A DNA stretch of 64,000 bases from Candidatus Binatia bacterium (GTDB lineage Bacteria; Desulfobacterota; Binatia; Bin18). Shown piece after piece: positions 2,516 through 41,974 of the stretch. The position numbers and the translations under genes were made by a program. Every line of letters starts with the position of its first letter. Position 1 is the first letter of the stretch. The notes under the pieces are model-generated. The model saw only the letters and a program-made list of their open reading frames with translations. It was not told the origin of the DNA and did not search any database. Where the stretch lies: assembly GCA_963664395.2 (NCBI GenBank), contig OY761159.2, positions 256,001 to 320,000 on the forward strand, given 5' to 3'.

Positions 2516-3852
2516 CACACACCGCAACGAAAGCTCCGGTTCCGCTGCTCGCCACGACAGACGCAGCCTGCCAGCGCCACCTCGCCAAGCTGCTGTCGCG
2601 TGGCGAGGACGCAAGTATACAGGTTGAAGCTGCGGTCCGCTCCATTCTGGATGACGTGCACAAGCGCGGTGACCGGGCACTCATCGCCCTCACCAAAAAA
2701 TTCGATCAGGTGTCACTCTCGTCTCACGAACTGGGCGCGACCCAGGACGAGATGGCGCAGGCGCTCAAGAGCCTCCCCGCACCAACCAGAAAGGCGCTCC
2801 GAACCGCGGCCCAACGTATCCGGCGCTTTCATCGCAAGCAGCGTCAGTCATCGTGGACGTACCGCGACGAGCTTGGGGTCACCCTGGGCCAAAAAATAGC
2901 GCCGCTTGAACGGGTCGGGGTGTATGTTCCCGGCGGCACCGCGGCCTATCCGTCTTCGGTGCTCATGAATGTGATCCCGGCCAAAGTTGCCGGGGTCAAA
3001 GAGGTCATCGTGGTCTCTCCGCCGTCTCCCGAAGGAGATAATCCCGCCCTGCTGGCTGCGGCTCGTATTGCGGGAGCGGACGCCTTTTTTCGGGTCGGCG
3101 GGGCGCAGGCTGTAGCCGCCCTGGCGTACGGCACCCAAACGATTCCGCGCGTCGATAAAATCGTCGGACCGGGCAATATTTATGTCGCCACAGCCAAACG
3201 GCTCGTCTTTGGACGGGTTGATATCGATATGATTGCCGGGCCGAGTGAGATTCTCGTTATCGCTGACCACACGGCCAAGCCCGACTATATTGCGGCCGAC
3301 ATGCTCTCCCAGGCGGAACATGACACCCTGGCCGCGCCGTTGTGTCTGACGACATCCCGACGAATGGGACAGGCAGTGATCCGGGAACTTAGCGAACAAC
3401 TCGCTCAGCTTCCCCGGCGCGCAATCGCGGCGGCCTCCTTACGTCGCTTCGGCGCGGTCATCATTGCTCGTAATCGTTCAGAGGTGGTGACGCTTGCCAA
3501 TGCGATCGCCCCCGAACATTTGGAACTTGCGGTCAAAAATCCACGGACCTGGATCAAAGATATTCACAACACCGGCGCGATATTTCTGGGGCATCTTTCG
3601 ACCGAACCGTTCGGCGATTATATGGCCGGTCCCAATCACGTTCTGCCCACGGGCGGCACCGCCCGGTTTTCCTCGCCACTCGGCGTCTACGACTTCCTGA
3701 AACGCACCAGTGTGATACAGGCTTCCTCTCGGGCCCTGTCTACCCTGGGTCCCGAAGTGGTGCGGCTCGCCAAACTTGAGGGACTTGAGGCGCACGCGCG
3801 GGCCGTGCAATATCGTTTAGACGGAGGCAGGCATGGCCGCACGCACAGCTGA
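2512..3852 (+). CDS. hisD: Histidinol dehydrogenase
   Basis: GVYVPGG, DMIAGPSE, SQAEH, APEHLE, GPNHVLPT; ATGA overlap with murA. Confidence 0.97.
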   Translation: MTHTATKAPVPLLATTDAACQRHLAKLLSRGEDASIQVEAAVRSILDDVHKRGDRALIALTKKFDQVSLSSHELGATQDEMAQALKSLPAPTRKALRTAAQRIRRFHRKQRQSSWTYRDELGVTLGQKIAPLERVGVYVPGGTAAYPSSVLMNVIPAKVAGVKEVIVVSPPSPEGDNPALLAAARIAGADAFFRVGGAQAVAALAYGTQTIPRVDKIVGPGNIYVATAKRLVFGRVDIDMIAGPSEILVIADHTAKPDYIAADMLSQAEHDTLAAPLCLTTSRRMGQAVIRELSEQLAQLPRRAIAAASLRRFGAVIIARNRSEVVTLANAIAPEHLELAVKNPRTWIKDIHNTGAIFLGHLSTEPFGDYMAGPNHVLPTGGTARFSSPLGVYDFLKRTSVIQASSRALSTLGPEVVRLAKLEGLEAHARAVQYRLDGGRHGRTHS

Positions 3853-4423
3853 CATACAGCGGAAGACCACTGAGACCGATATCCACCTGAGCATTCAAAT
3901 TGAAGGCGAAGGGAAGTACGAGGTATCGACCGGTGTCCCCTTTCTTGACCACATGCTGGAACTCTTTACCCGACACGGCTTCTTTAATCTCAGCGTGCAG
4001 GCCAGCGGTGATATTGCAGTAGACGATCACCATACGGTTGAAGATGTCGGTCTGGCGCTCGGCCAGGCGCTCCGAGAAGCCCTGGGCGACAAACACGGCA
4101 TCCGCCGCTTCGGCGCTGCCAGCGTGCCGCTTGATGAGGCGTTAGTCTCGTGCGTGGTTGACCTGAGCGGGCGGCCTTTTCTGGCCTACAATCTGGATAT
4201 TCGACAGGAACGGGTAGGAAATTTTTCGACGGAACTGATCCACGACTTTTTTCTGGCCTGCACGAATCAGGTCGGTATGAATCTGCACCTGAATATGACC
4301 CAGGGCCGCAACCCCCACCACATCATTGAGGCCGGCTTCAAAGCTTTTGCCCGTGCGCTGAGCAGCGCGGTTGAGCATGACCCACGGGTCACGGGCGTAT
4401 TGTCCACCAAGGGCACGCTCTAG
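3833..4423 (+). CDS. hisB: Imidazoleglycerol-phosphate dehydratase
   Basis: RKTTETDI, DDHHTVED, NPHHIIEA, STKG. Confidence 0.97.
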   Translation: MAARTADIQRKTTETDIHLSIQIEGEGKYEVSTGVPFLDHMLELFTRHGFFNLSVQASGDIAVDDHHTVEDVGLALGQALREALGDKHGIRRFGAASVPLDEALVSCVVDLSGRPFLAYNLDIRQERVGNFSTELIHDFFLACTNQVGMNLHLNMTQGRNPHHIIEAGFKAFARALSSAVEHDPRVTGVLSTKGTL

Positions 4424-4449
4424 GGGCCGGTTTGTACGGTCGTCCGGTC

Positions 4450-4737
4450 ATGAAGAAATCCGTCTCACGCCCCGCGTCTGCCAAAAAGAACACTTCACAC
4501 CGTACCGGGGGTGCCGCCGCCCGTCGCCGCCGCCCGTCGCCGCCGAAACGGGACGACAAGCTCTTCAAAGCCCTGCTCCTGAAATCCCTGGCAGCCTTTG
4601 AAGAGTCGTTCCGCCGTCAGTATCCGCACGAGTCCCGGGCGGATATTCTGGACCGAATGACTCGCCACCTGTCTGAGTTGACCCAGTTTGAGCACCGTCA
4701 CCCCAAGAGGTCGTACCGCTTTGGCCGACATCATTGA
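4450..4737 (+). CDS. Small basic hypothetical protein, possibly the partner of the downstream nucleotidyltransferase
   Basis: ATG at 4450; helical C-half; overlaps the NTase remnant. Confidence 0.5.
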   Translation: MKKSVSRPASAKKNTSHRTGGAAARRRRPSPPKRDDKLFKALLLKSLAAFEESFRRQYPHESRADILDRMTRHLSELTQFEHRHPKRSYRFGRHH

Positions 4738-4836
4738 CGAGACGTTCCGCCTGATTCAGCGGCTTTTTCGTCACGTCCGCATTCCCTACGCGATTATTGG
4801 TGGCTACGCCGCGGGCGTGTGGGGGGTTGAGCGAGC
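4688..4836 (+). pseudogene. 5' fragment of a nucleotidyltransferase
   Basis: IPYAIIGGYAAGVWGVERA is the NTase N-terminal motif; the expected T-x-D-I-D does not follow. Confidence 0.65.
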
Positions 4837-4991
4837 CGACAGAAGTTGCGCTGATCGGCGATGCTGCAACGGTGTCAGGAGAAATCAAAAGGCTCGAAGA
4901 CCTGGGCGTGACCAATTTGTGTGGCTATGCCTTTCAGGCCGACGCTGATGCATTCGAGCGGACGGTCGATTTTTTGGGTTCGCTGCCCTGA
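4830..4991 (+). pseudogene. 3' fragment of an LLM-class oxidoreductase
   Basis: EVALIGDAATVSGEIKRLEDLGVT...ERTVDFLGSL is a typical LLM C-terminus with no N-terminal part. Confidence 0.6.
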
Positions 4992-4995
4992 GGAC

Positions 4996-5097
4996 TAGAG
5001 CGTTTTACGATAAGCTCTAGCCGTGCAGGGGCTCCCGTCATGCCGGACGTGATCCGGCATCCAGCGGGCGGCTACACAGCATCGTGATTTGCTCTAG
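4996..5097. mobile_element. MITE-like element with CTAG ends, containing a REP-like hairpin
   Basis: Imperfect terminal inverted repeats CTAGAGCGTTTTACGAT / ATCGTGATTTGCTCTAG; internal GTCATGCCGGACGTGATCCGGCATCCAG. Confidence 0.55.
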
Positions 5098-5099
5098 CC

Positions 5100-5360
5100 C
5101 TAACTTTTACTGTATGACGCTCGAAGCGTTTCAAGTTTGACACTGCCATGAGGCTGAGTGCCGTCCCCCTGGATAACGACGACCTGTCCATCACCTATAA
5201 ACGGCTTGAGGCGATTCTCAATCAGCTGAGTGATACGCCAATTTCGATCTACGGCATGAGCGTACGTATACTCCCCAACTTGACTGTTTTCGGTAGCACG
5301 AATCACAATGCGGATGTTTTCCTTTTCCCAGACAGCCCTTTCAAAATCCCTTACCGTCAT
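5100..5360 (-). CDS. Hypothetical protein, 86 aa
   Basis: ATG 5360 after AGGAGAG RBS; protein-like sequence. Confidence 0.7.
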   Translation of the reverse strand: MTVRDFERAVWEKENIRIVIRATENSQVGEYTYAHAVDRNWRITQLIENRLKPFIGDGQVVVIQGDGTQPHGSVKLETLRASYSKS

Positions 5361-5391
5361 CGCATTTCTCTCCTTTCGTAGATGGGGCTGA

Positions 5392-6258
5392 TCAGCGCGC
5401 GAGCGTGGGCGACCAGTTATAGATGCGGGCGAGGCTGCCGCCCATGAGCGCGGCTCGCTCGGAGTCGGACAACTGGTCGGTGACCCGGAAGGCCTCGACA
5501 CCCTGCTCGTAGGTCAGCAACTCGACCGCCCGGGTCCAGTCCGTGCCCCACAGACAGCGCTCAAAGCCGTACGCCTCGAAGATCTGTCCCAGGGGCTCCC
5601 AAATGTCGGCGTAGGGGAATGGCTCGTGCGACAGGGTGCACGCCCCGGAAATCTTGATGGCCACATTGTCATGCTCGGCAAGGGCGATGACCTTGCCGAG
5701 ATCAGCAAAGGGCTCTGGCGGAGCAGGAGGCTCGAAGGGTTGCCGCAGACCCACGTGATCCACGACCATCTGGGTGTTCGGGTTCCGGCGCGCCAGTTCA
5801 CCCAACAGCGGCAGTTTTCCCCAACACAGCACGTTCACCGGCAGACCGTGCCGCGCGCCAGCCGCCAATATCCGATTCAGGCCCGGATCGTCGGCGGTCG
5901 GATCACCCATCAGCATGATGCGCGCCCCGACCACGCCCGGCCTTGCCGCCCATTCGGCAATCTCGTCTGCGACGGTTTCTATTCGGGGATCGAACGGCTT
6001 GATCAGACCGAACCGGCCGGGATGCCTGGCATATACTTCGAGCGCGTAGCTCGCGTCGAAGCGGTACATGGTCCACGGCGAGACCAACAGGGCTCCGTCG
6101 ACGCCAACGGCATCCATCGCTGCAACCATGTCGTCGCCCGTGACCTCGGATGGGCCGGGCAATGTCCTAATCCACGGCCGCTCCGGGTGGTCACGTTCAT
6201 AGGCATGGACCTGCGAGTCGATCGTCGGGGTCGGGCCAGTTTGCGAAGCGACCGCCAT
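5392..6258 (-). CDS. Amidohydrolase family 2 protein
   Basis: IDSQVH, VVDHVG, IKISG, WGTDW. Confidence 0.9.
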   Translation of the reverse strand: MAVASQTGPTPTIDSQVHAYERDHPERPWIRTLPGPSEVTGDDMVAAMDAVGVDGALLVSPWTMYRFDASYALEVYARHPGRFGLIKPFDPRIETVADEIAEWAARPGVVGARIMLMGDPTADDPGLNRILAAGARHGLPVNVLCWGKLPLLGELARRNPNTQMVVDHVGLRQPFEPPAPPEPFADLGKVIALAEHDNVAIKISGACTLSHEPFPYADIWEPLGQIFEAYGFERCLWGTDWTRAVELLTYEQGVEAFRVTDQLSDSERAALMGGSLARIYNWSPTLAR

Positions 6259-6269
6259 TCTTCTTGTTC

Positions 6270-7346
6270 CTACGCGTCTGCGAAGTGGGGCAGCACTTCT
6301 TCAACCAGCATGCGCTGTGAATTTTCCCAGGCTTCGTTGTTTTCCGACTGATCGAAGGTCAGGGCCAGCAGGCAACCGAAGCCGCCGGTTTGTTCGTACA
6401 TATCGCCCAGCTTTTGGGTCACGGTTTGTGGGGAGCCAACCAGCCACACATAGTCGGCCAGATACTCCAAGGTCACGTCGGAGTCCGGGACTTCGGGATG
6501 ATGCTTGAACAGGCTCATCATATCGAACGACTTGAAGAGCGGCAGCAGATACTCGCCCCACACCCGGCCCAGCATACCGTTCAGGGCTTGCTCGCGCGCC
6601 TCCCGGTCGGTCTCGGCAATATAGACCTCGCGCGAGATGCGCCAGTCACTCCGAGACGGCGTGACGCCGGACCGCTCGGCGCCTTCGACCACGGCCTGCC
6701 AATGGGTAGTGAGATAGCTATTGCTCAGCGCGATACTGAGGGGCAGGAAGCCGTTCTCGCCGGCGAACTTCAGCGTGTCCGAGCCGGGGGTGAGGCCGGC
6801 GATACCGATGGGCGGATGGGGTTTCTGAAAGGGTTTGAGGTGGAACTTGAGGCTGTCGAGCATGGTGTCAATCCGGTTGAACGACCAGAACTCGCCCTGA
6901 TATTCAAACGGCTCCTCGCTCTGCCACAGCCGGAGCATGATATTCAGCGCTTCCAGCGTCATGCGCCGATTTTCTCCGGCCGCACCGTCCACATTGAACA
7001 GTTTCCAGTCACTCGGCAGGCCGCTCGTGCCGACCCCCAGCATGAAACGGCCCTGGGCCATATGATCCAGAAAAGCCACCCGGTGGGCCAGCTCAACCGG
7101 ATGATGGTACGGCAGGAGATGAGCGCCGGGACAGAGTTTTATGCGCTGGGTGCGCAGGAGTGCCTGAGCAATGAGCAAATCCGGGGCGGGGTTGGGTTCC
7201 CACGGGGCGGTGAAATGCTCACCTATCCAGGCCTCGTGAAAGCCGACGCGATCGACAAATTCCAGGTGTTGCAGGTCCCACGCATGGCCCTCGTATAAAC
7301 CTCTTTCGGGTGGGTGTGAGGGCATCATAAAGACTCCGGCTTTCAT
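6270..7346 (-). CDS. LLM-class flavin-dependent oxidoreductase
   Basis: EAWIGEH, LLPYHHP, FLDHMAQGR, QKPHPPI. Confidence 0.92.
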   Translation of the reverse strand: MKAGVFMMPSHPPERGLYEGHAWDLQHLEFVDRVGFHEAWIGEHFTAPWEPNPAPDLLIAQALLRTQRIKLCPGAHLLPYHHPVELAHRVAFLDHMAQGRFMLGVGTSGLPSDWKLFNVDGAAGENRRMTLEALNIMLRLWQSEEPFEYQGEFWSFNRIDTMLDSLKFHLKPFQKPHPPIGIAGLTPGSDTLKFAGENGFLPLSIALSNSYLTTHWQAVVEGAERSGVTPSRSDWRISREVYIAETDREAREQALNGMLGRVWGEYLLPLFKSFDMMSLFKHHPEVPDSDVTLEYLADYVWLVGSPQTVTQKLGDMYEQTGGFGCLLALTFDQSENNEAWENSQRMLVEEVLPHFADA

Positions 7347-7556
7347 AGGCTTCCTCCTTCGGCTCCCGCTCCCGCAGGCTGGATGAACACCTATCGGTTT
7401 TCGCCCGAAGCCTCAAGGCCAGGACCACCCTTCCCTATTGAAAATCGCTGGACAACAAGCGCTTTTGTTTTAAGACAACAGAGAGATCCGGTTCCGGCCC
7501 AGGAGTGTGGACCTCGTACCCATCCCCCTACTCTGGCCCATTCTGCCTCGTCACCA

Positions 7557-10500
7557 CTAAGGCTCGACCGCCGTAATCACAAAGTTCTGACTGTTCTGTT
7601 GCCACTCCAGGGTCACCGTCTCCCCCACCGGGGGGAAGTCGGCCACCTCGCACGTGCCGGCGGCATCCCGCACAAACTCTTCCCCCAGCGTCGTCACGGT
7701 GACGGTGGCCCGCCCTAACTCGACGCCATCGACCAGGGCCACGACCGTATGCGCCCCCTCCCCCAACAGGTTCCAGTTGAACAACAACCCAAACCCGTTG
7801 GCCACGTCGCCACAGTCCGCTACGGTGTCCGCCCGCGGGGTACCGTAGGCCGCCGCCTGCGTCTCGCCGTCAATCGCAATCTCGACCGCATCCGCCTCGC
7901 ACACCCAGCCGGAGATGACGCCGATGCCGCTTTGGAAGGAATTGGCGCCCGGGTTCTCCAGATACCCCGTAGGTTCCTCCGACGACCCGCCACCGCTGCC
8001 GCCACTCCTGCCCTCAGCACCACCGCCACCGGTCCCACTACCATTGCCGCCACCATTGCCGCCGCCGTTGCCACCGTTGCCATTGCCACCATCGCCGCCC
8101 CCGTCCTCGATCATCGAAACGGATTCCGCTGCCGCTACGGTCGCCGTCGCCGCACTGACCCGCGTCTCTTCTGTCCCCCCCGCGTCGGTGAAGGTCACCC
8201 GTACCTGTACCTGCTTACCCACGTCGGCGACGGTCAGCGTGTAGGTCTCGTGCGGCGCCCCAGGAATGACACTCTCGGTGCTGCCCTCCACCCGCAGCCA
8301 CTGGTAGACGTAGAGGACGTTCGTGAGGCCGTCGGCATCCATAATCCCAGAGAGGTCCACCCTCAGCGTCTCCCCCACCCGCAGAATCCCGCTGACCGTG
8401 GGCTGCCCGGTCGCCGGCCTATTGGCGGGCGCAGTCGTCCCCGATCTGCTCCCTGACCACGACCCGTATATTTCGCCGCTCCTCGCCCGCACCTGTACCT
8501 CGTAGGTCGTGTTCGCCCGCAAGCCGGCAATGGTCGTGCGCGTGGTAAGTCCGCTATGCGTCCACTCCTGCCAGGAATCCATCGGGGCCTGCCGGTACCA
8601 CACGTCATAACCAGTGATTGGCGTCTCGTTGTCAGTCGGTGCCGTCCAACTCACGGCGAGCGTCGTTGGCCCCGCCGCCATCACCCTCGACGCGGACACT
8701 GACCCAGGAAACGCGTCGTCCTCTTCGACCTGGACTACTACCTGAGAACTCTCTACGTCGTCGTGGCCCCAGCTCGTCGCCCTATGCACGATAACCACTG
8801 GCGGGCCCGTCACGCTGTCCGCATCCTCCGCGGCCGACACCCCGAAGGTTTGCGGCACCATCCAGTTGTCTACCGTGAAGGTCACGCTGGCCGGCCGTAC
8901 CCAGACACCGGTTCCCGCCCAACCCGACGGCGTGAGGGTCACGTCGCCGTGCGGCTGCGACAACGGCACCGCCGTGTAAGTGGCGCGGTGTCCTTCCACC
9001 ACCGTCAGTGCGGGCGGCTCCAGCGCAACGTCCGGCGGCGGTGGCGAGGAAAGAAACTCCGGCAGGGGCTCAGTGCGTAGCGTCTCCCAGCCAGTGCGCA
9101 GGTCGCTGAGCCAGGATGGGACAGCCCCCAGCCGCAAGGCAAGCTGCGCCTCAAAGAGCGATTCGGGGGTCACCATCACGCCGTCGGATTCGAGAATGTC
9201 GAGGGTAGTGGTATCAAAGGAGGCTGGATTGCCGTGGAATCCGACGATAATGGGGAACAGAAATCGAAGGTAATTCCGCCAGAAATTATAGGACTTGTTC
9301 ATCCCGCCATGGTTGAAATTCCAAAACACCAGATGTCTGAGGTGGTGTGGCGTGCTGCGACCCCCCCCGCTGCCGTCCAGACGGCCGTTATTGACCCGGT
9401 CGTACAGCGTGGCATAGCTAGGCTTCGTCCGATGGATGTCAACAGCCTGTCCTGGACTCATGTCGAAACGATAGAACACGGTTCCGGTCGCGGCATGGCT
9501 GGGACCTATGCCGTGAAGATGGTTTGCCAGGTCTTCCGACAGCCCAACCCAGGTGCCGTAGTTACCTTCGCTTTTAATGGAATGGTGGCCTCTGTTTCCC
9601 GCTATAGTGACCTGGTACACAGATACGGCTGCGCTGCCGATTACTGTCAGTGCCCAATTGACATTGATGAGAGAGATGCGCCGCACCCAGGAATTGACGC
9701 ATTGTTCAAGCCGCAAAAGACTATAGCCCCCATCATGGCGGGCGTTTTTGTGATGGACAAATTCCTCCCAAAATGAGCCATGAAAGCTGATGTCCTCAAC
9801 ACCGACTTCCTCAAGGTGCTGATAGAAGCGCACCTTCCAGCCATAGTCATGATTGACCTTGGTATGCAGGGGTTCATTGAGGCGAATCCGATTGCCCTGA
9901 ATCTCGGCAATGCTGTGTCTTTCGTGTATGATAATTCCCTCTTCGAAAAGCACTTCCCACGAGCTGTCGCTGGGATTTGGTGAGCGCGGAGAAAGGAATT
10001 CATCAATCGCTTCCGTGCTGTTCATAGACAGTGTAATCCATTGGCCGACGCTCAACTCGGAAGCGTCAGCGACGGTGATCCAGAAGGTTTCTCGGGCCGC
10101 ACTGTCGGTAACGGACGTCGAGAGGCGGTTGCCTGCAGAATCAGGTCTGAATCTGAACATAAAGGGCGTTGAATACTTTTGATCGGGATTGGCTGGGGGC
10201 AGGTTATTGACCTGTCTGATGATCGTGCCGCCCGTTCGGCTGCCGCTGCCTCTGAGAACGATATGGCTGCCTCTGATGTAGATAGGTTTGTTAGGGTCCG
10301 TATCGGTATTGACGAGAAATTCTCCCGGCGGGAAGAAGACGATACCGCTGCCATTGGCCTCGGCAGCGGCGATGGCACGCCGGATGGCGCTCTGGTCGGA
10401 CTGGTCATCATTCGCGAGGGCACCATAGGTGGTGACATCGAACACGGGATGGGTGACATCGGGCACGGGCTTGCTGAAGTAGTGATAGCCCGCATAGGAG

Positions 10501-35150: not shown

Positions 35151-35708
35151 TTAGCGGTGCGTCTCTTTGAATTTCTTACCGTTGACCTTGCCTTTGTGTC
35201 TGACCGCACCACCGGGGAACACTTCGATTGTACCCTTATGGCGGTTGCCGAGACTGTCTTTGTATTTGTAGGTGTGGCGGCTGTAATCACCCACGCTAAA
35301 GCTGTTGCTGTGCGACTTGTACGTGTAGTCCGGCAATGACGGACTCGGGTGCGGACTGCGGTATTTGCCCTTGGTTACGGTCGTCCCGCCGGGGAGCACC
35401 TGGGTCTTGCTCTTGTAGCGGTTGCCGAGGCTGTCTTTGTATTTGTAGGTGTGGCGGCTGTAATCGCCTACGCTGAAGCTCTTGCTGTGCGACTTGTACG
35501 TGTAGTCCGGCAATGACGGGCTTGTATACGACGGGCTACGGGAGGGACTGGAATACGGACTCGAGTACGATGGACTACTGCGGGGACTGGAATACGGTCG
35601 GCTGTACGGGTCAGCGAACACTGACTCGGGAACGATTGGAACGAGCGCGAATGCAGCGACAAGAAGTATCCGCGTCACGGTTTTCATGCTGTCCGGGATG
35701 ATGTTCAT
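35151..35708 (-). CDS. Secreted Ser/Tyr/Lys-rich protein with internal duplication
   Basis: Signal peptide ending VFA; PYSSP repeats; SLPDYTYKSHS.SFSVGDYSRHTYKYKDSLGNR twice. Confidence 0.75.
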   Translation of the reverse strand: MNIIPDSMKTVTRILLVAAFALVPIVPESVFADPYSRPYSSPRSSPSYSSPYSSPSRSPSYTSPSLPDYTYKSHSKSFSVGDYSRHTYKYKDSLGNRYKSKTQVLPGGTTVTKGKYRSPHPSPSLPDYTYKSHSNSFSVGDYSRHTYKYKDSLGNRHKGTIEVFPGGAVRHKGKVNGKKFKETHR

Positions 35709-36018
35709 CGCGTTCCCCTCCTCTCTTAGCCGTAGGTCGGATTAGCGCAGCGTAATCCGACATCTTCCGAACACTCACCTGATTCACGCTCTTCCACGCG
35801 GCAAAGTCAAGCATTTCGAGGGTAATGCCTCGCTCCCATTCTGCATGAGCTTGGCTCAGCAGTGCCTCATTCACCTCTGCGGAAACGTATTCTTCTCCAC
35901 AATTGTTGCAGATTTGGGCCGGGACTTTCTTGAACACAACCGTTGTCTGGTCGCGTTCCAAGACGATAGTAGCGTATCCGCCTGTGGTCGTCCCGTTCTG
36001 ACAGATCGCGCATTTCAT
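35611..36018 (-). CDS. YgiT-type zinc-finger (MqsA-like) protein with read-through extension
   Basis: CAIC...CNNCGE; TAG of copy 2 is TGG here. Confidence 0.8.
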   Translation of the reverse strand: MKCAICQNGTTTGGYATIVLERDQTTVVFKKVPAQICNNCGEEYVSAEVNEALLSQAHAEWERGITLEMLDFAAWKSVNQVSVRKMSDYAALIRPTAKRGGERDEHHPGQHENRDADTSCRCIRARSNRSRVSVR

Positions 36019-36065
36019 ATGATCCGCCGTGAAAAATTATTCATCCACTGAAGAATATCCGGTTC
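35729..36065. repeat. Direct repeat copy 1 (REP hairpin, YgiT zinc-finger gene, DUF4258 3' stub)
   Basis: High visible similarity to 40727-41056. Confidence 0.9.
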
Positions 36066-36079
36066 AGACCCCTCTACTG

Positions 36080-36904
36080 TTAATCCGGGCTATTTGCGAT
36101 CCGATAGCCTTTGTCGGTAACGCGGAAAATTTCTCCCGTCCTCTCACCAAAGTCCTTAATTAGATCTAAGTTGTTCAGTTCATCAACAGCACTCCTCCAT
36201 CTTGCAACAGACCTTGAGTCTCCAGACTCTGCAAATTGCCTTCCGTTGGTCTGAACTTGGTTACTGATCCTGCAAATTACGCCCTGCGGAGTTTGAATCG
36301 CCGCAAGTAAAAGTTCCCGCGCGGGGTCGGACAAGGAAGAAGCTACTTCCTGTTCTGGAGACTGACTGATACCACTGGAGTCTGCTGAGGGATTCGCAAA
36401 ATGGTGAATCACTGTTTGAGCGAGTTGTCTCAAAAACTTATCCTTGAACTGCTCAGGAGTCTCGTACTCCTCAATAAGCCCTTTTTGTTTACAGGACTCT
36501 TTGAATGCCTTGAGGGCAGAGTACTGCCCATTGTCAATACTGTCAGGATGAACAGGTGCTGAGGAGAAATAGATCATTGCTGGTTTATCGGCGTTGAGGT
36601 GCTTTTCAATCTCCTCAACGGTCCCGCTCGGGGCAACTCCGGTGGGGCTACCAAGGCGGGTCCAGAAAACTGCAACGAGAAGGTCAGCATCATACAACAA
36701 TTGCCTATTGATGATCTCTTGCGGCCTGTCCCTCATTTCGGGCGAGGTGTGGGTCTCCCAGCTAAGAGGTAGCAAAACAACACTGCGATCCCTCGCATGG
36801 GTCGCGTTCCAATCGCTAATCACGTCTCGGATGATATTACGCTCTTTAGAGACATCGCTGGGCGAGGCGATCATGATTTCTATAACGGTTGCCGTGTATC
36901 CCAC
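36080..36904 (-). CDS. DUF4062 (TIR/NDT-like) domain protein with C-terminal helical/winged-helix-like domain
   Basis: IASPSDV..ER, WE, PQEIIN, FWTRLGSPT..SGTVEEI; GTG start after GGAGG. Confidence 0.85.
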   Translation of the reverse strand: MGYTATVIEIMIASPSDVSKERNIIRDVISDWNATHARDRSVVLLPLSWETHTSPEMRDRPQEIINRQLLYDADLLVAVFWTRLGSPTGVAPSGTVEEIEKHLNADKPAMIYFSSAPVHPDSIDNGQYSALKAFKESCKQKGLIEEYETPEQFKDKFLRQLAQTVIHHFANPSADSSGISQSPEQEVASSLSDPARELLLAAIQTPQGVICRISNQVQTNGRQFAESGDSRSVARWRSAVDELNNLDLIKDFGERTGEIFRVTDKGYRIANSPD

Positions 36905-36941
36905 TCGGATAACCTCCAAGGAACAATTAACCAAAAGCCAA

Positions 36942-37898
36942 TCAACTTCCCTTTGGCAATAAAAAGATCAACTTGGGTTCCTCACTATCACCAGCATCCT
37001 TCCATTCTTCCCAGGAAAGCCCGCTTCGCTGTACGAAATCAATCTCTTGCTGATAGCCCGCTATTTGAGATGTCGTATTCGGGATCAATTCCTTGATCTC
37101 TTTCAGCATACACTTGGTCTCTCTCGGCATCTGCATCAGTGGGATTGGATTTTCGTCGAAATGTTGAAGGGGATACAAATACGATTCGCGGATTTCTTCG
37201 TTTTCCTTGCGCATCCTCTGCACGCTTTGTACCGCTAGATTATTCTCGTTCAGAAATAATTCACACTGCACGAGGGCAATACGACTACACGCCCATGTTC
37301 GATAGCTGAGGTCAAAAAGATCAGGTCTTGATAAATATTTTTTCGTAGTAATCAATTCATCCAAAAAGGACTTTGAGCGGTTTGCCGATTCAATCAACCT
37401 GTTCCTGGCGTCAGTCAGTCCTTGCCGTCGAAGGTCCATGGAGGAGGCGAGGACGGCTGTGCTGGCTATTTCAAGGGCGGCTTTCATTTTTCCGACCATT
37501 TCCAGGTCTTGCTTCCGTGAAATCCATTGCACCTCAACAAGAACCTCGTCCAGTTTCTTGTGAATCTCTTGAAGGCCGGCCTGTATCTTATTCAGCTTTG
37601 AGATGACAACGGCAAAACCAATTGCACTGACTCCGAGGTTTAATATTTGCATACCCAAGGCCGCCGTGGACAAAGAACGAAGGCTCGCTAGCTGGGACGA
37701 CAGCAAGGGCGAAGACGGGAGATTCCCCTTTGCTAGTTCTTGCGAAAGTCCACTTGACTCACGCAAAAATGTGACGATCTCACCACTGCCGTTTCTGACG
37801 ACTCCGCCTTCACGGGTGAATGTTCCATCTGTCAGCCCTTTTTTGATCCAGTCTGGCAGTTTTAATGTAACGTCAACAAAATCATAGATACTGCTCAT
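36942..37898 (-). CDS. Uncharacterised 318-aa protein with hydrophobic segment and coiled coil
   Basis: REGGVVRN.SGEIVTFLRE; LGMQILNLGVSAIGFAVV followed by heptad pattern; ATGA-coupled to the upstream gene. Confidence 0.8.
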   Translation of the reverse strand: MSSIYDFVDVTLKLPDWIKKGLTDGTFTREGGVVRNGSGEIVTFLRESSGLSQELAKGNLPSSPLLSSQLASLRSLSTAALGMQILNLGVSAIGFAVVISKLNKIQAGLQEIHKKLDEVLVEVQWISRKQDLEMVGKMKAALEIASTAVLASSMDLRRQGLTDARNRLIESANRSKSFLDELITTKKYLSRPDLFDLSYRTWACSRIALVQCELFLNENNLAVQSVQRMRKENEEIRESYLYPLQHFDENPIPLMQMPRETKCMLKEIKELIPNTTSQIAGYQQEIDFVQRSGLSWEEWKDAGDSEEPKLIFLLPKGS

Positions 37899-38608
37899 TC
37901 GCCGTCTCCGAAGTCCTCGCGAGCCTGTATCTTCTTACGGAGATAGGCCACATGACAGACGCAAGGGATGGTCACTCGATATGCCGGTCCAGCAATGCTA
38001 ATCGCCGTCCATATCCCCGTTATTACCCAACCGATAGGCCCAGCAAGGATAGTGACAACTCTTCCACCTATTCCGCCTATCACGCGGCCCAATACCATTT
38101 TTGCTATACCATTAGCCACCGTTGCCGCCATTAGAAGAGCCAGAGGAGAGCCAGCACTAAAATCCAAATTATCGCCCCCTTCTTTCTTGAAAGCTTTAAA
38201 GACTTCCTCTTTCTCTTTATCGCCCATCCCCTTTAAGCTCCGCTTGACTATCTCCTTTATAATTTTCATCTCAACTCGTTCAACCGAGTCATAATATTCG
38301 TCATCCACTCCCAGTTTGTTCGCTACGTCTTGCACAATCTCTTTATAGGGTGGTCCTTCACCTGGAAGAAATGGAAGGATAGGTGCAAGAATGATAGGCG
38401 GGCAACCGCGGTATTTATTGACAATAGTATTTCCCCCAAAAAGTCTTAGGTGGTGAGCCATTTCCTCGACGTATTTGGAGTGGTCAGGATAGTATTTTTG
38501 ATATTTTGCTTCCTTGGAAAGCCTCCCTGTAACGGGCTTTGTCAAATATGATACCAATGGTCCTAAATCTTCGTTTGACGATTCTCGCAATACGCGAATA
38601 AGTTCCAT
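37895..38608 (-). CDS. YaaW/DUF3944-like (UPF0174) protein
   Basis: NEDLGPLVSYL, FGGNTI, YKEIVQDVANKL, GPIGW..AGPAYRVTIPCV; internal AAGGA RBS before ATG 38608. Confidence 0.8.
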   Translation of the reverse strand: MELIRVLRESSNEDLGPLVSYLTKPVTGRLSKEAKYQKYYPDHSKYVEEMAHHLRLFGGNTIVNKYRGCPPIILAPILPFLPGEGPPYKEIVQDVANKLGVDDEYYDSVERVEMKIIKEIVKRSLKGMGDKEKEEVFKAFKKEGGDNLDFSAGSPLALLMAATVANGIAKMVLGRVIGGIGGRVVTILAGPIGWVITGIWTAISIAGPAYRVTIPCVCHVAYLRKKIQAREDFGDGE

Positions 38609-38644
38609 GTCAGTATTCCTTAGCTGATGAATGATTGGTTGTTC

Positions 38645-38923
38645 TAACCCTGGCGAATCCGGGCGAATCCGTCGGTATCGTTTGCCGCACGTCACGACTT
38701 GACCATCAGCCACAACTACGTAGTCACGCCAATGCCCCTCAAGTCGTCGAGAAACGTCCTGCCTCTTGGAGTGAAGAACGCGCCGCCGGCCACGCTTGCC
38801 GAAGTAGAATATTTCGCCACTACGACCGGCAGGTGTCCGCTCGCCATAGTCAAGAAGTAAATTCACGACGCTTGACGATATGGCGCGCTGTTGCATGCGG
38901 ACTATGGCGTGAGCCGTGTACAT
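38645..38923 (-). CDS. DUF4258-like small protein, now reading through in frame into the yaaW-like gene
   Basis: TAHAIVRMQQRAI..LLLDYG..VVVADGQVVT; AAGGAGG RBS; 10-bp duplication moves its TAG out of frame. Confidence 0.65.
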
Positions 38924-38937
38924 ACTCCCTCCTTAGG

Positions 38938-39354
38938 TTACTCTTCATCAGAGTCTTCGTCTTCTCCGTCGGAGCCAGACAGGAGCCAGCCGAGGCCGGC
39001 TGCGGCTATTACTCCGAGGAGTCCGAAGCTTAACAGACTAGCACCGGACACTAATCTACTGACGGTAGTACCAGCCACAATCCCAAGGCCAGCCGGACTG
39101 ATAAGTTTTTTCAGAATTTCCTCAGCTTTTGAGTTCCCAGCTCTTGCTTCACGAGCGGTTCGGTACAACAGATCAATAAGGTCTGCTTGCTTCCCTCTTG
39201 GCTGCGCTTCGTCATTGAGCCAACGAAATATCGAAGACTGCGCTACGCCGAAAATCCTGGCTAAGTGGGCTGGTCCAGATTCCAGACCGAGCTTCGAGAG
39301 TGTCTTTTGGATGACTTCCAGCTTCGCCTTTACCGACGCTTGTCTTTTTTCCAT
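38938..39354 (-). CDS. XRE-like HTH protein with hydrophobic Gly-rich C-terminus and acidic tail
   Basis: LARIFGVAQSSIFRW HTH; GLGIVAG..FGLLGVIAAAGLGWLL. Confidence 0.8.
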   Translation of the reverse strand: MEKRQASVKAKLEVIQKTLSKLGLESGPAHLARIFGVAQSSIFRWLNDEAQPRGKQADLIDLLYRTAREARAGNSKAEEILKKLISPAGLGIVAGTTVSRLVSGASLLSFGLLGVIAAAGLGWLLSGSDGEDEDSDEE

Positions 39355-39366
39355 ACCTTTCTTATA

Positions 39367-39419
39367 CTCCCAAAGGTAGCTATCAATGGGAGCATAGAAA
39401 GCTGTATCTTTCTTGTCAA
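39367..39419 (-). promoter_or_regulatory. Sigma70 promoter with two overlapping palindromes
   Basis: TTGACA-17-TATGCT; AGAAAG-N6-CTTTCT in the spacer; CTCCCA-N14-TGGGAG over the start region. Confidence 0.7.
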
Positions 39420-39549
39420 TGCCCTAAATGTTTTGCAGCAAAGTGAGCAGGCATCAGTCCGGGACGGACCGGCTCGGAGAAGGATGGTGGAGGTAGGGCC
39501 GCAGTGCGGCTCATTACGGAGGAGCTAAGAATGTCAGATGTACCGGTCT

Positions 39550-40149
39550 TTATAGATTGGTTAGCTCGGCGATGGCGTCCTTGATGATTTTGGTTTCTCT
39601 CGTTTTATCTAGGTCGAGCGTGAGCCACCCGTTATACCTCTTCATGACCTGACCACTCCATGACTGGCCCATTGCGTTGTGACACACAGCAACGAGGTCT
39701 TCGTAGAACGCTGTGGTATCGAAACGAATGACATCCATCCCATGGACATTGGGAAACAGCTTCAGATGGTCCGTCTGGCCAGACCAACTAACCCACCATC
39801 CTACTTCTCTCTTCCCTATAACCAGCGTCCGCAGTTCATCTGTATGAGTTAATGAATGCCGAAACAGGAGAGCCAGGGTAGCGGCCTTCCCCTGATACCC
39901 AGATCGCACCGTCTCAAACTCATTTTCGAGTACAGATTGCAGATTCTGCGCCGTTTTATCGTTGCGATAGATCAAGTCTCCCACCGCTTCGGCAATTGGA
40001 AACGTCATACGCAGGAGCGCCCAAAAAGGTAAAAATACTTCTTTCTTACCCTTCGAAATGAGCTTGAGTATCGTCCCAACGTCGCCTTCAAGACGGAGGA
40101 GTATTTGACGAAACGCTTGCTCGTCCGATTTGACTTCGCCAGGACGCAT
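39550..40149 (-). CDS. Hypothetical helical protein with HEPN-like Rx4H motif
   Basis: AGGAGG RBS before ATG 40149; LFRHSLTH. Confidence 0.65.
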   Translation of the reverse strand: MRPGEVKSDEQAFRQILLRLEGDVGTILKLISKGKKEVFLPFWALLRMTFPIAEAVGDLIYRNDKTAQNLQSVLENEFETVRSGYQGKAATLALLFRHSLTHTDELRTLVIGKREVGWWVSWSGQTDHLKLFPNVHGMDVIRFDTTAFYEDLVAVCHNAMGQSWSGQVMKRYNGWLTLDLDKTRETKIIKDAIAELTNL

Positions 40150-40199
40150 AGCGTTTTTCCTCCTGATCCTTCGTTCCACCAACTCCCTTTCTATACATT

Positions 40200-40320
40200 T
40201 ATCATCTGCAACTTTGGCCTCGTCCCCCTTAAAAATGAACTGATCCGGTGAGGGTAAAAAGTCATCCACGACCTGGATATCACCCAGGGGCTCATCCGTG
40301 TATATGATTTTCTTCTTCAT
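40200..40320 (-). pseudogene. Truncated CopG/BrnA-like antitoxin, in frame with the downstream gene
   Basis: MKKKIIYTDEPLGDIQVVDDFLPSP..KV is the N-terminus of BrnT-associated antitoxins; RHH part absent. Confidence 0.65.
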
Positions 40321-40579
40321 AGGTCTGTTTTCCTTTTCGCCAATACCCAGCGCCGATAATGCGGATAATGCTGCCTCGATAGGTAAACCGAACGGTGAGA
40401 ATGCCCGCTCCGACCTTGCCAAAACAATACCACCTCTCCTCTTCCTGACTATGGGTCACATCTTTGGCGATCACGCGATTCAGATCAGCGAAGGCGTACT
40501 GCGCATCTTCAAATGCGACGCCATGCTTCTCCAGATTTTCTCGATTCTTGTTCTCGTCCCATTCGAATCTGTGGCTCAC
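40292..40579 (-). CDS. BrnT-family toxin
   Basis: FEWDENKN..NLEKHGVAFEDA, HSQEEER, IRIIGA; GTG start. Confidence 0.88.
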   Translation of the reverse strand: MSHRFEWDENKNRENLEKHGVAFEDAQYAFADLNRVIAKDVTHSQEEERWYCFGKVGAGILTVRFTYRGSIIRIIGAGYWRKGKQTYEEENHIHG

Positions 40580-40726
40580 GTACTTCCTCACAGTGTTGTA
40601 CCGGATTAAATCGGTGGGAGCGTAGACCGCAGCCCACCTCAGTATTATCCCTGTCAAAAGGTACTGCCTCCGTCTGAATATCGCGTCTACATCATCCATC
40701 TTCGACCTCTGAGAGAAACAGCGGTG

Positions 40727-41056
40727 GCCGTAGGTCGGATTAGCGCAGCATCATCCGACATCTCCCGAACTGATTCACGCTCTTCTACGCGGCAAAGTCA
40801 AGCATTTCGAGCGTAATGCCTCGCTCCCATTCCGCATGAGCCTGGTTCAGCAGCGCCTCATTCACCTCTGCGGAAACGTATTCTTCTCCACAATTGTTGC
40901 AAATTTGGGCCGGGACTTTCTTGAACACAACCGTTGTCCGCTCGCGTTCCAAGACAATGGTGGTGTGCCCGTCTGTAGTCGTCCCGTTCCTACAGATTGC
41001 GCATTTCATGAGGCCCTCCGTGAAAAGTTATCCGTCCACCGGAGCGTATCCGGTTC
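40727..41056. repeat. Direct repeat copy 2
   Basis: Matches 35729-36065. Confidence 0.9.
40785..41009 (-). CDS. YgiT-type zinc-finger (MqsA-like) protein, 74 aa
   Basis: MKCAIC..VPAQICNNCGEEY. Confidence 0.88.
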   Translation of the reverse strand: MKCAICRNGTTTDGHTTIVLERERTTVVFKKVPAQICNNCGEEYVSAEVNEALLNQAHAEWERGITLEMLDFAA

Positions 41057-41152
41057 GTATGCCGTTATGACAACCAATATTTGCTCGTCCTCGTTGATGC
41101 CAACAACGACATGTAAAGGTCGATTTATCGCGGCACGACCATTCAGCAAGAC
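41006..41152 (-). pseudogene. 3' half of a DUF4258 toxin-like gene
   Basis: Hand translation RPLHVVVGINEDEQILVVITAYEPD..W; TGA overlaps the YgiT ATG; 5' half replaced by FN3 sequence. Confidence 0.75.
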
Positions 41153-41154
41153 TG

Positions 41155-41974
41155 TTGGCCGGAGCGGTCCAATCGAGGTTGATCTGGTTCGGTCCGTTGG
41201 CCGTCGCGGTGAGGCCGGTCGGCGCGCCGGGGACGGTGACGGTTGGTGCCTCCCGGGTCACCGTGACGGTATAGGTCTTCACCGCGCCGCCGGTCTCGGC
41301 CATGCCCTTCACCTTGATGGTGTTCGGGCCGACGACGAGCGTCATGTCGAGCGGGTTCGTGTCCGTGTTCGTGTCCGTGTCGAATTCCGGGTCCAGGATG
41401 CCGGCGCTCACCGTGAGATCTCTCAGCGTCGCGAGGGTCCGGGGGTCGATGACCGACACCGTGACGGTGTCGGTGCCGGTCGCTCCAAGGGCCGCCCCGT
41501 GACCGTCAGCGTGAACGCCAGGTCGCCTGCGGTCGAGGGGGCGGTGAAACTCGGGCTCGCGGTGTCGGCGCCGGTGAGCGTGACCGTCGCGCCGCTCGCC
41601 TGCCTCCACGCATAGATCACGTTCGTGCCCCACGGGCTGCTGCTGCTGCCGGCGAGCGCCACCGCGGCACCCGTCGCCACCCTTTGGGTCTCGCCCGCCT
41701 CCGCCGTTGGCGCGAAGGGCTCGGGGTTGGAGTTCTTCTGCAGGGTCAACGTCGTCAGCGTCGTGAGATCCTGGAAGACGTTCGCCCGCAGGCTGCTCAG
41801 GGCGTTGTTATTCAGGCACAACGTGTCCAGCGTGGTGAGCCCGTCGCAAAAAATTCCCGCCGGCAGGCTGCTCAGGGCGTTGTATGACAGATTCAGGTCG
41901 TCCACGGCGTCCGCGGAGAGGGGCTTTTCAGAGGCAAACAGCAGGCATGAGGGGCGGGGTACGGGGAAGTCCAT
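41155..41974 (-). pseudogene. Fragmented surface-protein gene (LRR, PKD-like, cadherin-like, FN3 pieces)
   Basis: LNLSYNALSSLP/LCLNNNALSSL LRRs; WRQASG..ADTASPSFTAP; YTVTVTR; PGAPTGLTATA; split across frames. Confidence 0.75.

Follow-up and report, generated by a model that had tools for sequence, protein, structure and literature searches.

A probable defence islet with jukAB-type genes and a DUF4062/NIR-type gene in Candidatus Binatia

A 64,000-nt stretch of the genome of a Candidatus Binatia bacterium (contig OY761159.2; the whole stretch is called the window hereafter) contains, at positions 36080-39419, a compact group of co-directional genes that raises the question of whether they encode one undescribed defence system or several known ones placed side by side. 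A previous sequence-only reading of this DNA had proposed the former, i.e., an unnamed operon in which a membrane-associated sensor or scaffold would be coupled to a nucleotide-cleaving effector. Our analysis has led to a different answer: the locus is quite probably a defence islet composed of JukAB, an autonomous DUF4062/NIR NADase, and a toxin-antitoxin (TA)-like pair, that is, a new example of known systems. The proposal that the region is a defence locus has held. Family membership, folds, gene order, and distribution are what the analysis itself has shown.

All the genes of the 36080-39419 region are on the minus strand. They are tightly packed and co-directional, as the sequence-only reading had stated, but they are not five. 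There are four open reading frames (ORFs), of 138, 342, 318, and 284 aa, which follow each other in transcription order with a 14-nt gap, a 4-nt overlap (of jukB with jukA), and a 37-nt gap. The 342-aa ORF (37895-38923) carries in a single frame a DUF4258-like N-terminus (38663-38923) and a YaaW/JukA-like part. In seven related loci, the DUF4258-like gene stands alone as an 89-aa ORF that ends at a stop codon of its own, and jukA has an independent start. In the window, a 10-nt tandem duplication (CGGATTCGCC twice, 38652-38671, minus strand) shifts the frame past this stop codon and the ORF joins jukA, which explains why there are four ORFs instead of five. The AAGGA Shine-Dalgarno sequence of jukA and its ATG start (38608) are preserved. 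The duplication is missing in the five relatives that could be aligned (5/5). A contig from run X1 carries it, and this run is probably the source sample, so it does not provide independent support; a contig from run X4, which belongs to another study and presents 142 differences, has ten letters fewer at the duplication site. The presence of the duplication in the window and X1, together with its absence from the relatives and X4, indicates that the fusion is strain-specific.

The YaaW-like part of the fused ORF corresponds to JukA. From its own ATG, jukA (37895-38608) encodes a 237-aa member of the YaaW family, and the 342-aa product matches the PADLOC profile PDLC04111 with an E-value of 1e-59 (protein residues 110-335, profile positions 13-241 of 250) as well as NCBIfam PRK10236 (E 9e-11). 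A genome-wide search, with a positive E. coli control, showed that jukA is present in a single copy. The next gene (36942-37898) encodes the 318-aa protein, a divergent JukB that contains a small N-terminal beta domain, a hydrophobic segment (residues 78-103), and a helical bundle (105-305). It matches the PADLOC JukB profile PDLC04114 (E 1.5e-11, residues 18-140), and this profile also matches all 32 aligned relatives of the protein, with a best E-value of 1.2e-17. The sequence-only reading did not recognise a named system in this combination of genes, but PADLOC assigns the YaaW-like protein to JukA and the 318-aa coiled-coil protein to JukB.

The structural data point in the same direction. 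In the AlphaFold2 (AF2) model of JukB (predicted local distance difference test, pLDDT, 69.6), the helical bundle is predicted confidently and the hydrophobic stretch poorly, and the small beta domain is also present. In a Foldseek search with this model, chain B of the solved JukB structure (PDB 9jht_B, 'Jumbo phage Killer B') came second (prob 0.97, E 0.06, template modelling score 0.34-0.40), and VIA aligned both structures collinearly over 154 residues (Z 11.3, root-mean-square deviation (rmsd) 3.7; model 123-281, chain 123-303). Several observations weigh against this assignment. A Z score of 11.3 can be reached by chance for helical bundles, for which values below approximately 13 are common, and 9jht appeared at rank 11 in VIA, with ten designed helical repeat proteins above it. 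The JukB-family profile did not retrieve the 9jht sequence at E ≤ 1, and the protein is divergent, its PADLOC match being confined to residues 18-140. Moreover, we know of no nucleus-forming jumbo phage of Binatia. The sequence searches of the 318-aa, 284-aa, and 342-aa proteins against solved structures gave nothing significant, and a Stenotrophomonas locus (L021), sought as a source of a canonical JukB, has no jukB beside its jukA. The modelled fold is thus supportive, not decisive, and it is the profile match, the adjacency to jukA, and the structure taken together that make it likely that the 318-aa protein is JukB.

Juk (jumbo phage killer) was described by Li et al. in Pseudomonas aeruginosa PA14 (10.1101/2022.09.17.508391). 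According to this preprint, JukA, the former YaaW, senses the infection by phiKZ-like phages and recruits JukB, and seven of the eight jukAB operons tested from diverse bacteria blocked phiKZ (10.1101/2022.09.17.508391). The statement that YaaW/UPF0174 has no established function had therefore been superseded since 2022. JukA is reported to bind the early phage protein gp241, and JukB to form tetrameric pores that permeabilise the early-infection vesicle (PMC13434031, PMC13282480). The Binatia genes resemble those of PA14 in that a YaaW-family jukA is directly followed by jukB, both matched by PADLOC, in that the JukB model aligns collinearly with the helical bundle of 9jht_B, and in that JukB contains a hydrophobic stretch compatible with membrane insertion. 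They differ in the strong divergence of JukB, whose profile match covers the N-terminal 123 residues alone and which has no sequence match to 9jht, in the Binatia host, in the HTH/DUF4258-like pair located upstream (HTH, helix-turn-helix), and in the fusion of the DUF4258-like ORF to jukA in this strain. The same preprint reports that jukA also pairs with Xre regulators, with other genes, and with varied effectors, and that EcsC-like proteins are found beside jukA. In the JukA-Xre operons of Escherichia and Janthinobacterium, JukB is missing, the Xre partner was dispensable in both operons tested, and JukA alone was enough (10.1101/2022.09.17.508391). The window is similar to these operons in that an Xre-type HTH gene adjoins jukA in one putative operon, and differs from them in the presence of JukB, in the hydrophobic C-terminal segment of the HTH protein, and in that the HTH gene is also found without any jukA.

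Another jukA arrangement was observed in the related locus L003, which contains a second hotspot (3208-5415 and 6001-9007 of that locus) with two tandem jukA paralogues separated by a 104-aa jukB stub, and with an intact jukB. Ahead of this hotspot lies a gene whose 735-aa product combines an Xre HTH, a dynamin-type GTPase domain, and a hydrophobic Gly-rich tail.

The last gene of the group encodes a DUF4062/NIR-type protein, a predicted NADase related to Toll/interleukin-1 receptor (TIR) domains. Its ORF was listed at 36080-36934 (284 aa), and the likely start is the GTG at 36904, placed behind a GGAGG sequence, which yields a 274-aa protein (36080-36904) that agrees with the length of its relatives. 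The protein matches the N-terminal part of the PADLOC profile PDC-S60 (E 7.1e-31); the match covers positions 4-199 of the 906, which is short of a whole-profile match, and the protein has 274 residues. Residues S93, G94, T95, E97, and E98 (274-aa numbering) are invariant in the 34 aligned relatives and form an S-G-T-x-E-E motif, so the glutamates of the SGTVEE sequence highlighted by the sequence-only reading are present and conserved. In VIA, the AF2 model (pLDDT 79.3) is closest to DNPH1 (Z 12.2, rmsd 2.6, 125 aligned), followed by the TIR domains of RPS4/RRS1 (Z 11.1) and SPARTA (10.4), and by AbTir (10.2), MilB (10.2), and SARM1 (9.8). These values (DNPH1 at 12.2, TIR domains at 10.2-11.1) are consistent with the earlier proposal of an effector with a fold like that of TIR domains or nucleoside deoxyribosyltransferases (NDT), and the NIR preprint reports the same structural resemblance for its own domain. 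The Foldseek matches of the model also include flavodoxins and GTPases. As a point against the assignment, the protein reaches 16.7 bits on the Pfam family PF13271, below the cut-off of 24.7, and a genome-level Pfam search misses it; PF13271 matches 31 of the 34 aligned relatives at E ≤ 0.01.

In the model, the core is followed by a long helix and then by a winged-helix-like module made of helices and a beta-hairpin at residues 184-270, which we have called the auxiliary (AUX) module. This module (window 36083-36367, approximately 90 aa) constitutes a widespread family of its own, often located C-terminal to TIR domains and sometimes in tandem. No Pfam family was found for it, and an Atlas search with the module gave a best score of 0.78, which was not usable. 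The C-terminal 95 residues alone retrieved 591 cluster representatives at E ≤ 0.001. Twenty representatives, chosen for variety of length among the best 50, were scanned: seven contain a TIR_2 or CAP12-type TIR domain, three contain DUF4062, three show a weak winged-helix match alone, one is of low complexity, and six gave nothing. The weak matches of the AUX relatives are to HTH_45, MksE, and RQC winged-helix families. The module diverges faster than the core, with, e.g., 47% vs 88% identity in relative P0073. Since AUX is found on both TIR and DUF4062 proteins and evolves faster than the core, it shows the pattern of a sensor module carried by NADase effectors.

This architecture has counterparts among recently described defences. 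In three 2026 preprints, DUF4062/NIR is presented as a TIR-like NADase of phage defence, in each case with a catalytic glutamate and a variable auxiliary region; it is reported in the single-gene defences Swarozyc, Evangelion, and Vulcan, in the two-gene system Vesta, and in Avs proteins. The layout fits that of Swarozyc (KpSwz), described as a TIR-like DUF4062 NADase whose core is followed by a stalk helix and an HTH/winged AUX domain and which is activated by the phage portal (10.64898/2026.05.01.722283). Both are single polypeptides of similar size with an N-terminal DUF4062 core, a long helix, and a C-terminal winged-helix-like module. The likeness comes from the published description, and E97 of the 274-aa protein and E97 of KpSwz have been paired by their numbering. 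The KpSwz hairpin residues W238 and Y239, which are reported to anchor on the portal (10.64898/2026.05.01.722283), have no obvious counterpart in the consensus of the family studied here. Evangelion (10.64898/2026.06.25.731849) and Vulcan, Vesta, and NIR-Avs (10.64898/2026.09.04.749371) share with the window protein the DUF4062/NIR core, the catalytic glutamate, and a fast-evolving auxiliary region. The window protein differs from Vulcan and Avs in that it contains neither HEAT repeats nor a STAND module, respectively, and from VstA-VstB of Vesta in that there is no alkaline-phosphatase partner, its neighbours being jukB and a zinc-finger gene.

Whether this NADase-type protein works with Juk can be judged from its distribution. 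The DUF4062 protein has 2507 relatives, most of them full length and of approximately 278 aa. A plasmid of Synechococcus elongatus carries a copy with 49% identity, next to a HEAT-repeat gene and BrnT/BrnA, homologues on Enterococcus plasmids share the core alone (approximately 32% identity), and the sole enterobacterial plasmid homologue found is cut by an IS3 element. Neither jukA nor jukB was found beside the DUF4062 relatives in any of 86 loci (six genome and plasmid loci and 80 metagenome loci; among the latter, the upstream flank reaches 1 kb or more in 39 and the downstream flank in 44). As a control, JukA was detected in 16 of the 21 loci behind the JukA model, and JukB in six of them. 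No neighbour recurs in the 80 metagenome loci of the family, where the largest shared group comprises three loci, and none of the other window proteins recurs there apart from one BrnT. Among the six related JukAB loci, the DUF4062 gene is intact in the window only; L001 keeps a 48-aa remnant and L002-L005 have none. In L001, the closest relative (7840-8126), the first 48 DUF4062 codons are joined to codon 20 of a zinc-finger gene. This deletion removed the NADase gene and left JukAB, which indicates that the DUF4062 gene is dispensable beside it. The DUF4062 gene is also absent from the 16 JukA loci of other phyla.

These data bear directly on the idea of one system, in which the HTH protein, JukA, and the coiled-coil protein would be membrane sensors or scaffolds that activate the DUF4062 effector. 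Such an idea is favoured by the co-directional tight packing (gaps of 14, −4, and 37 nt), by the lack of a terminator-like fold in the 37-nt gap between jukB and the DUF4062 gene, by the report that JukA occurs with varied effectors (10.1101/2022.09.17.508391), and by the same gene order, DUF4062 included, in a second strain (the X4 contig, from another study); the gap and the second strain are also the points that speak against our separation of the NADase from Juk. However, JukA already has its cognate JukB here, the DUF4062 gene is intact in one of six related JukAB loci and in none of the 16 JukA loci from other phyla, and none of the 86 loci of its family contains jukA or jukB. Furthermore, the protein has its own AUX module, common to TIR proteins, the characterised DUF4062 proteins with AUX are reported as single-gene defences, and DUF4062 and TIR are both absent from the main text of the Juk preprint (10.1101/2022.09.17.508391). 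We consider one system improbable, and a functional coupling of Juk and the NADase through co-transcription is likewise doubtful. The single undescribed system of the sequence-only reading is therefore not supported, since the neighbourhood survey revealed no co-occurrence elsewhere and JukAB is a named system. What remains of its sensor and effector scheme are the probably membrane-associated products and the TIR/NDT-like effector; the DUF4062 gene is not a conserved partner.

Two further genes lie upstream of jukA. The HTH gene (38938-39354) encodes the 138-aa Xre-type protein, with weak matches to HTH_3 (E 0.0022) and DicA-like (E 5e-4) families, a hydrophobic Gly-containing C-terminal segment at residues 97-128, and an acidic tail. 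It lies 14 nt upstream of the DUF4258-like gene, in bicistronic order. The HTH protein is present in nine of the 151 genomes of the class, all of one family (eight of the 18 other genomes of that family and none of the 132 outside it). The DUF4258-like part, ancestrally the separate 89-aa protein, matches Pfam DUF4258 with E 7.7e-4, and 17 of the 30 Atlas feature matches are DUF4258 clusters (score 0.92). The Pfam match (20.1 bits, below the 25-bit cut-off, over 27 of the 71 profile positions) and the lack of any Pfam match at E 0.01 for the stand-alone homologue of L004 weigh against this family assignment. DUF4258 (PF14076) is described as an uncharacterised type II toxin family with the BECR fold, antitoxin-toxin gene order, and MqsA fusions (PMC11980606). 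In agreement with such modules, the window has a small basic protein of approximately 89 aa encoded downstream of an HTH gene, in antitoxin-toxin order, and MqsA-type zinc-finger genes close by, the paper listing 17 DUF4258-MqsA fusions (PMC11980606); in contrast to them, the Pfam match is below the cut-off and the putative antitoxin carries a hydrophobic tail. A complex prediction for the HTH and DUF4258-like proteins gave a score of 0.00, which speaks neither for nor against their binding. Judging from the sequences, the two genes are probably a TA-like pair, with the HTH protein as antitoxin and regulator and the DUF4258-like protein as a BECR-fold toxin. A motif shared by the hydrophobic tails of the HTH protein and JukA was also considered and discarded, as the HTH protein gave nothing in a BLASTP comparison with the JukA ORF (E 0.27).

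This pair occupies a hotspot of one Candidatus Binatia family, with an LLM-class monooxygenase gene on one side and a repeat-protein/hydantoinase gene on the other. Both genes are found together in 10 of the 11 hotspot loci, L011 retaining the DUF4258-like gene alone, and they precede JukAB and non-Juk cargo alike. The cargo is JukA-JukB in the window, L001, L003, and L005; jukB is split in L002, and both jukA and jukB are truncated in L004. An ankyrin protein is encoded in L012, an EcsC-family protein in L015, and a DUF1232 protein in L018, and L011 and L050 contain little or no cargo. The pair is located at the same site with or without JukAB, which speaks against a single system that would include the HTH and DUF4258-like genes.

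The DNA of this region is AT-richer than the window as a whole, as the sequence-only reading had noticed (GC content 0.45-0.53 over 36000-41000, compared with the window mean of 0.571); the DUF4258-like part has a genome-like GC content of 0.573 and the cargo one of 0.46-0.50. The sigma-70-like promoter TTGACA-17-TATGCT proposed upstream of the HTH gene is present at 39419-39391 (minus strand) and, with 10 of 12 matches, is the best site of the region, where five promoter-like sites were found vs 4.8 expected from shuffles. Its -35 TTGAC is invariant in the seven aligned related loci (7/7), while the mean column identity of the upstream region is 51%. A palindrome read from the sequence, CTCCCA-N14-TGGGAG (39367-39392, minus strand), overlaps the -10 and is a possible operator for the HTH protein; it is present in the window, L001, and L018, all of one HTH subtype, and loci of the other subtype have a TTGCAAT-type repeat in its place. 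Hydropathy confirmed the hydrophobic Gly-containing segments seen earlier in three products, i.e., the HTH protein (residues 97-128), the JukA part (260-311), and JukB (78-103), which are probably membrane-associated. No Rfam family and no tRNA gene were found near the locus. Short stretches of both jukA and jukB are represented among the contigs of one RNA library, but contigs cannot show transcription.

The position of the pair could also be explained if the Xre-HTH and DUF4258-like proteins formed the constant core of a modular system, needed by swappable sensors or effectors such as JukAB, EcsC-like, DUF1232, or ankyrin proteins. The occurrence of the pair in 10 of 11 hotspot loci irrespective of the cargo (with the DUF4258-like gene alone in L011), the hydrophobic, Gly-rich, membrane-type character of three of the four cargo types, the conserved promoter, and the EcsC-like proteins reported beside jukA (10.1101/2022.09.17.508391) would fit this idea. 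On the other side, the pair is limited to one family (eight of 18 other genomes there, none of 132 outside), so its shared position can be due to hotspot inheritance; none of the 16 JukA loci from other phyla contains it, the two JukA-Xre operons tested, from Escherichia and Janthinobacterium, did not need their Xre partner (10.1101/2022.09.17.508391), and its DUF4258-like gene (GC 0.573) is set apart from the cargo (0.46-0.50). A constant core of this kind seems to us unlikely. We assign a similarly small chance to a more elaborate possibility, in which an HTH and BECR-like DUF4258 core would be wired to swappable sensors, the duplication would arm JukA with an N-terminal RNase-type toxin domain, and the DUF4062 NADase, co-transcribed, would provide an abortive second layer behind the non-abortive Juk; if true, DUF4258-JukA would be a JukA effector fusion of a kind not described before. 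Finally, the YaaW-like protein and its neighbours might have a housekeeping membrane or stress function and no defence role, the family matches being misleading. In favour of this, the JukB similarity is partial, but the strong JukA profile match (E 1e-59), the low GC content, the variable cargo, and the toxin-antitoxin genes around, together with the seven of eight tested jukAB operons reported to block phiKZ (10.1101/2022.09.17.508391), make this very hard to believe.

The region is flanked by direct repeats, in agreement with the repeat-bounded cassette of the sequence-only reading. One pair (35779-36065 and 40770-41056) has 287 nt with 89% identity and the other (35729-35772 and 40727-40770) has 44 nt with 93% identity, the copies being approximately 4.99 kb apart. 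They hold the only two close copies in the genome of a YgiT/MqsA-type zinc-finger gene. The downstream repeat copy (35729-36065) contains a zinc-finger ORF at 35611-36018 (minus strand) and a repetitive extragenic palindrome (REP)-like sequence at 35732-35761, and the upstream copy (40727-41056) contains a 74-aa zinc-finger gene at 40785-41009 (minus strand) and the same REP-like palindrome; the zinc-finger protein of the upstream copy matches TIGR03831 (E 2e-11). The 30-nt palindrome, GTAGGTCGGATTAGCGCAGCGTAATCCGAC, is located at 35730-35762 and 40730-40759 of the window and has 37 copies in the genome at up to three mismatches, with none in the control. In metagenome contigs it reaches a depth of more than 12,000, which indicates that it is widespread beyond the source organism. 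The upstream repeat copy was not seen in the other five JukAB loci. The repeats were considered as the ends of a mobile element, and this was set aside because the same genes are at the same site in other genomes without the upstream copy. The X1 and X4 contigs of approximately 5.0 kb, whose ends map to both repeat copies, are the usual outcome of an assembler at a repeat and do not indicate a circular form.

The segment between the repeats additionally contains two genes that the sequence-only reading had not listed. A BrnT-family toxin gene (40292-40699, minus strand; Pfam BrnT_toxin E 1.4e-23) is part of the low-GC islet but not of Juk, and also precedes the 290-aa gene in L011 and L050. 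The 290-aa ORF (39550-40422, minus strand) belongs to no family, with zero matches in Pfam, PADLOC, and NCBIfam, and has a probable start (MKKK...) at an ATG near 40320, overlapping the end of brnT. The copies in L001, L002, and L050 are conserved with 69-79% identity, and the one in L011 is truncated; in L001 the gene is found without brnT. This gene may encode an unusually long BrnA-like partner of BrnT, or it may be unrelated.

Farther upstream, the monooxygenase gene and the upstream zinc-finger copy are separated by a high-GC stretch (41028-41974, minus strand, GC 0.64). Its ORFs resemble pieces of a surface protein of the leucine-rich-repeat and fibronectin type. L001 and L011 lack this stretch at the corresponding site, which suggests an insertion specific to the window that arrived with the upstream repeat copy. 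On the other side, at 35151-35708 (minus strand), there is a gene for a 185-aa secreted-looking protein with internal tandem repeats of 177 and 39 nt (SPSYTSP and YKYKDSLGNR motifs), which is kept at the edge of the hotspot in all the related loci.

Taking all these results together, the islet of JukAB, NADase, and TA-like pair that we have proposed would be a small, horizontally acquired element with three separate units in a hotspot of one Candidatus Binatia family; we infer its biochemical activities, its phage specificity, and its transcription. By analogy with PA14, JukA would detect nucleus-forming jumbo phages through an early phage protein located on their early-infection vesicle and would recruit JukB, whose tetrameric pores would breach the vesicle, so that the phage DNA would be destroyed and the cell would survive. 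The second unit, with the layout of Swarozyc, would respond when its AUX module meets a phage cue, and the TIR-like core would then hydrolyse NAD+ and cause abortive infection; it is perhaps co-transcribed with jukAB and would work independently. The third unit, the Xre-HTH and DUF4258-like pair in antitoxin-toxin order, probably anchors the defence hotspot, and its conserved promoter probably drives the downstream cargo under autoregulation. The 10-bp duplication has joined the DUF4258-like ORF to jukA in this strain, and the jukA start is kept.

The finding would add Candidatus Binatia, an uncultured lineage of soils and sediments, to the known range of JukAB, here with a JukB that is very divergent, and it hints at the existence of phages that infect these bacteria and form an early-infection vesicle. 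It also documents a large DUF4062/NIR lineage of approximately 278 aa whose sensor module is common to canonical TIR proteins, and this sharing of AUX may help to sort the Swarozyc, Evangelion, and NIR families. More generally, the locus advises caution, since close packing and a shared promoter within a defence hotspot do not prove that the genes constitute one system.

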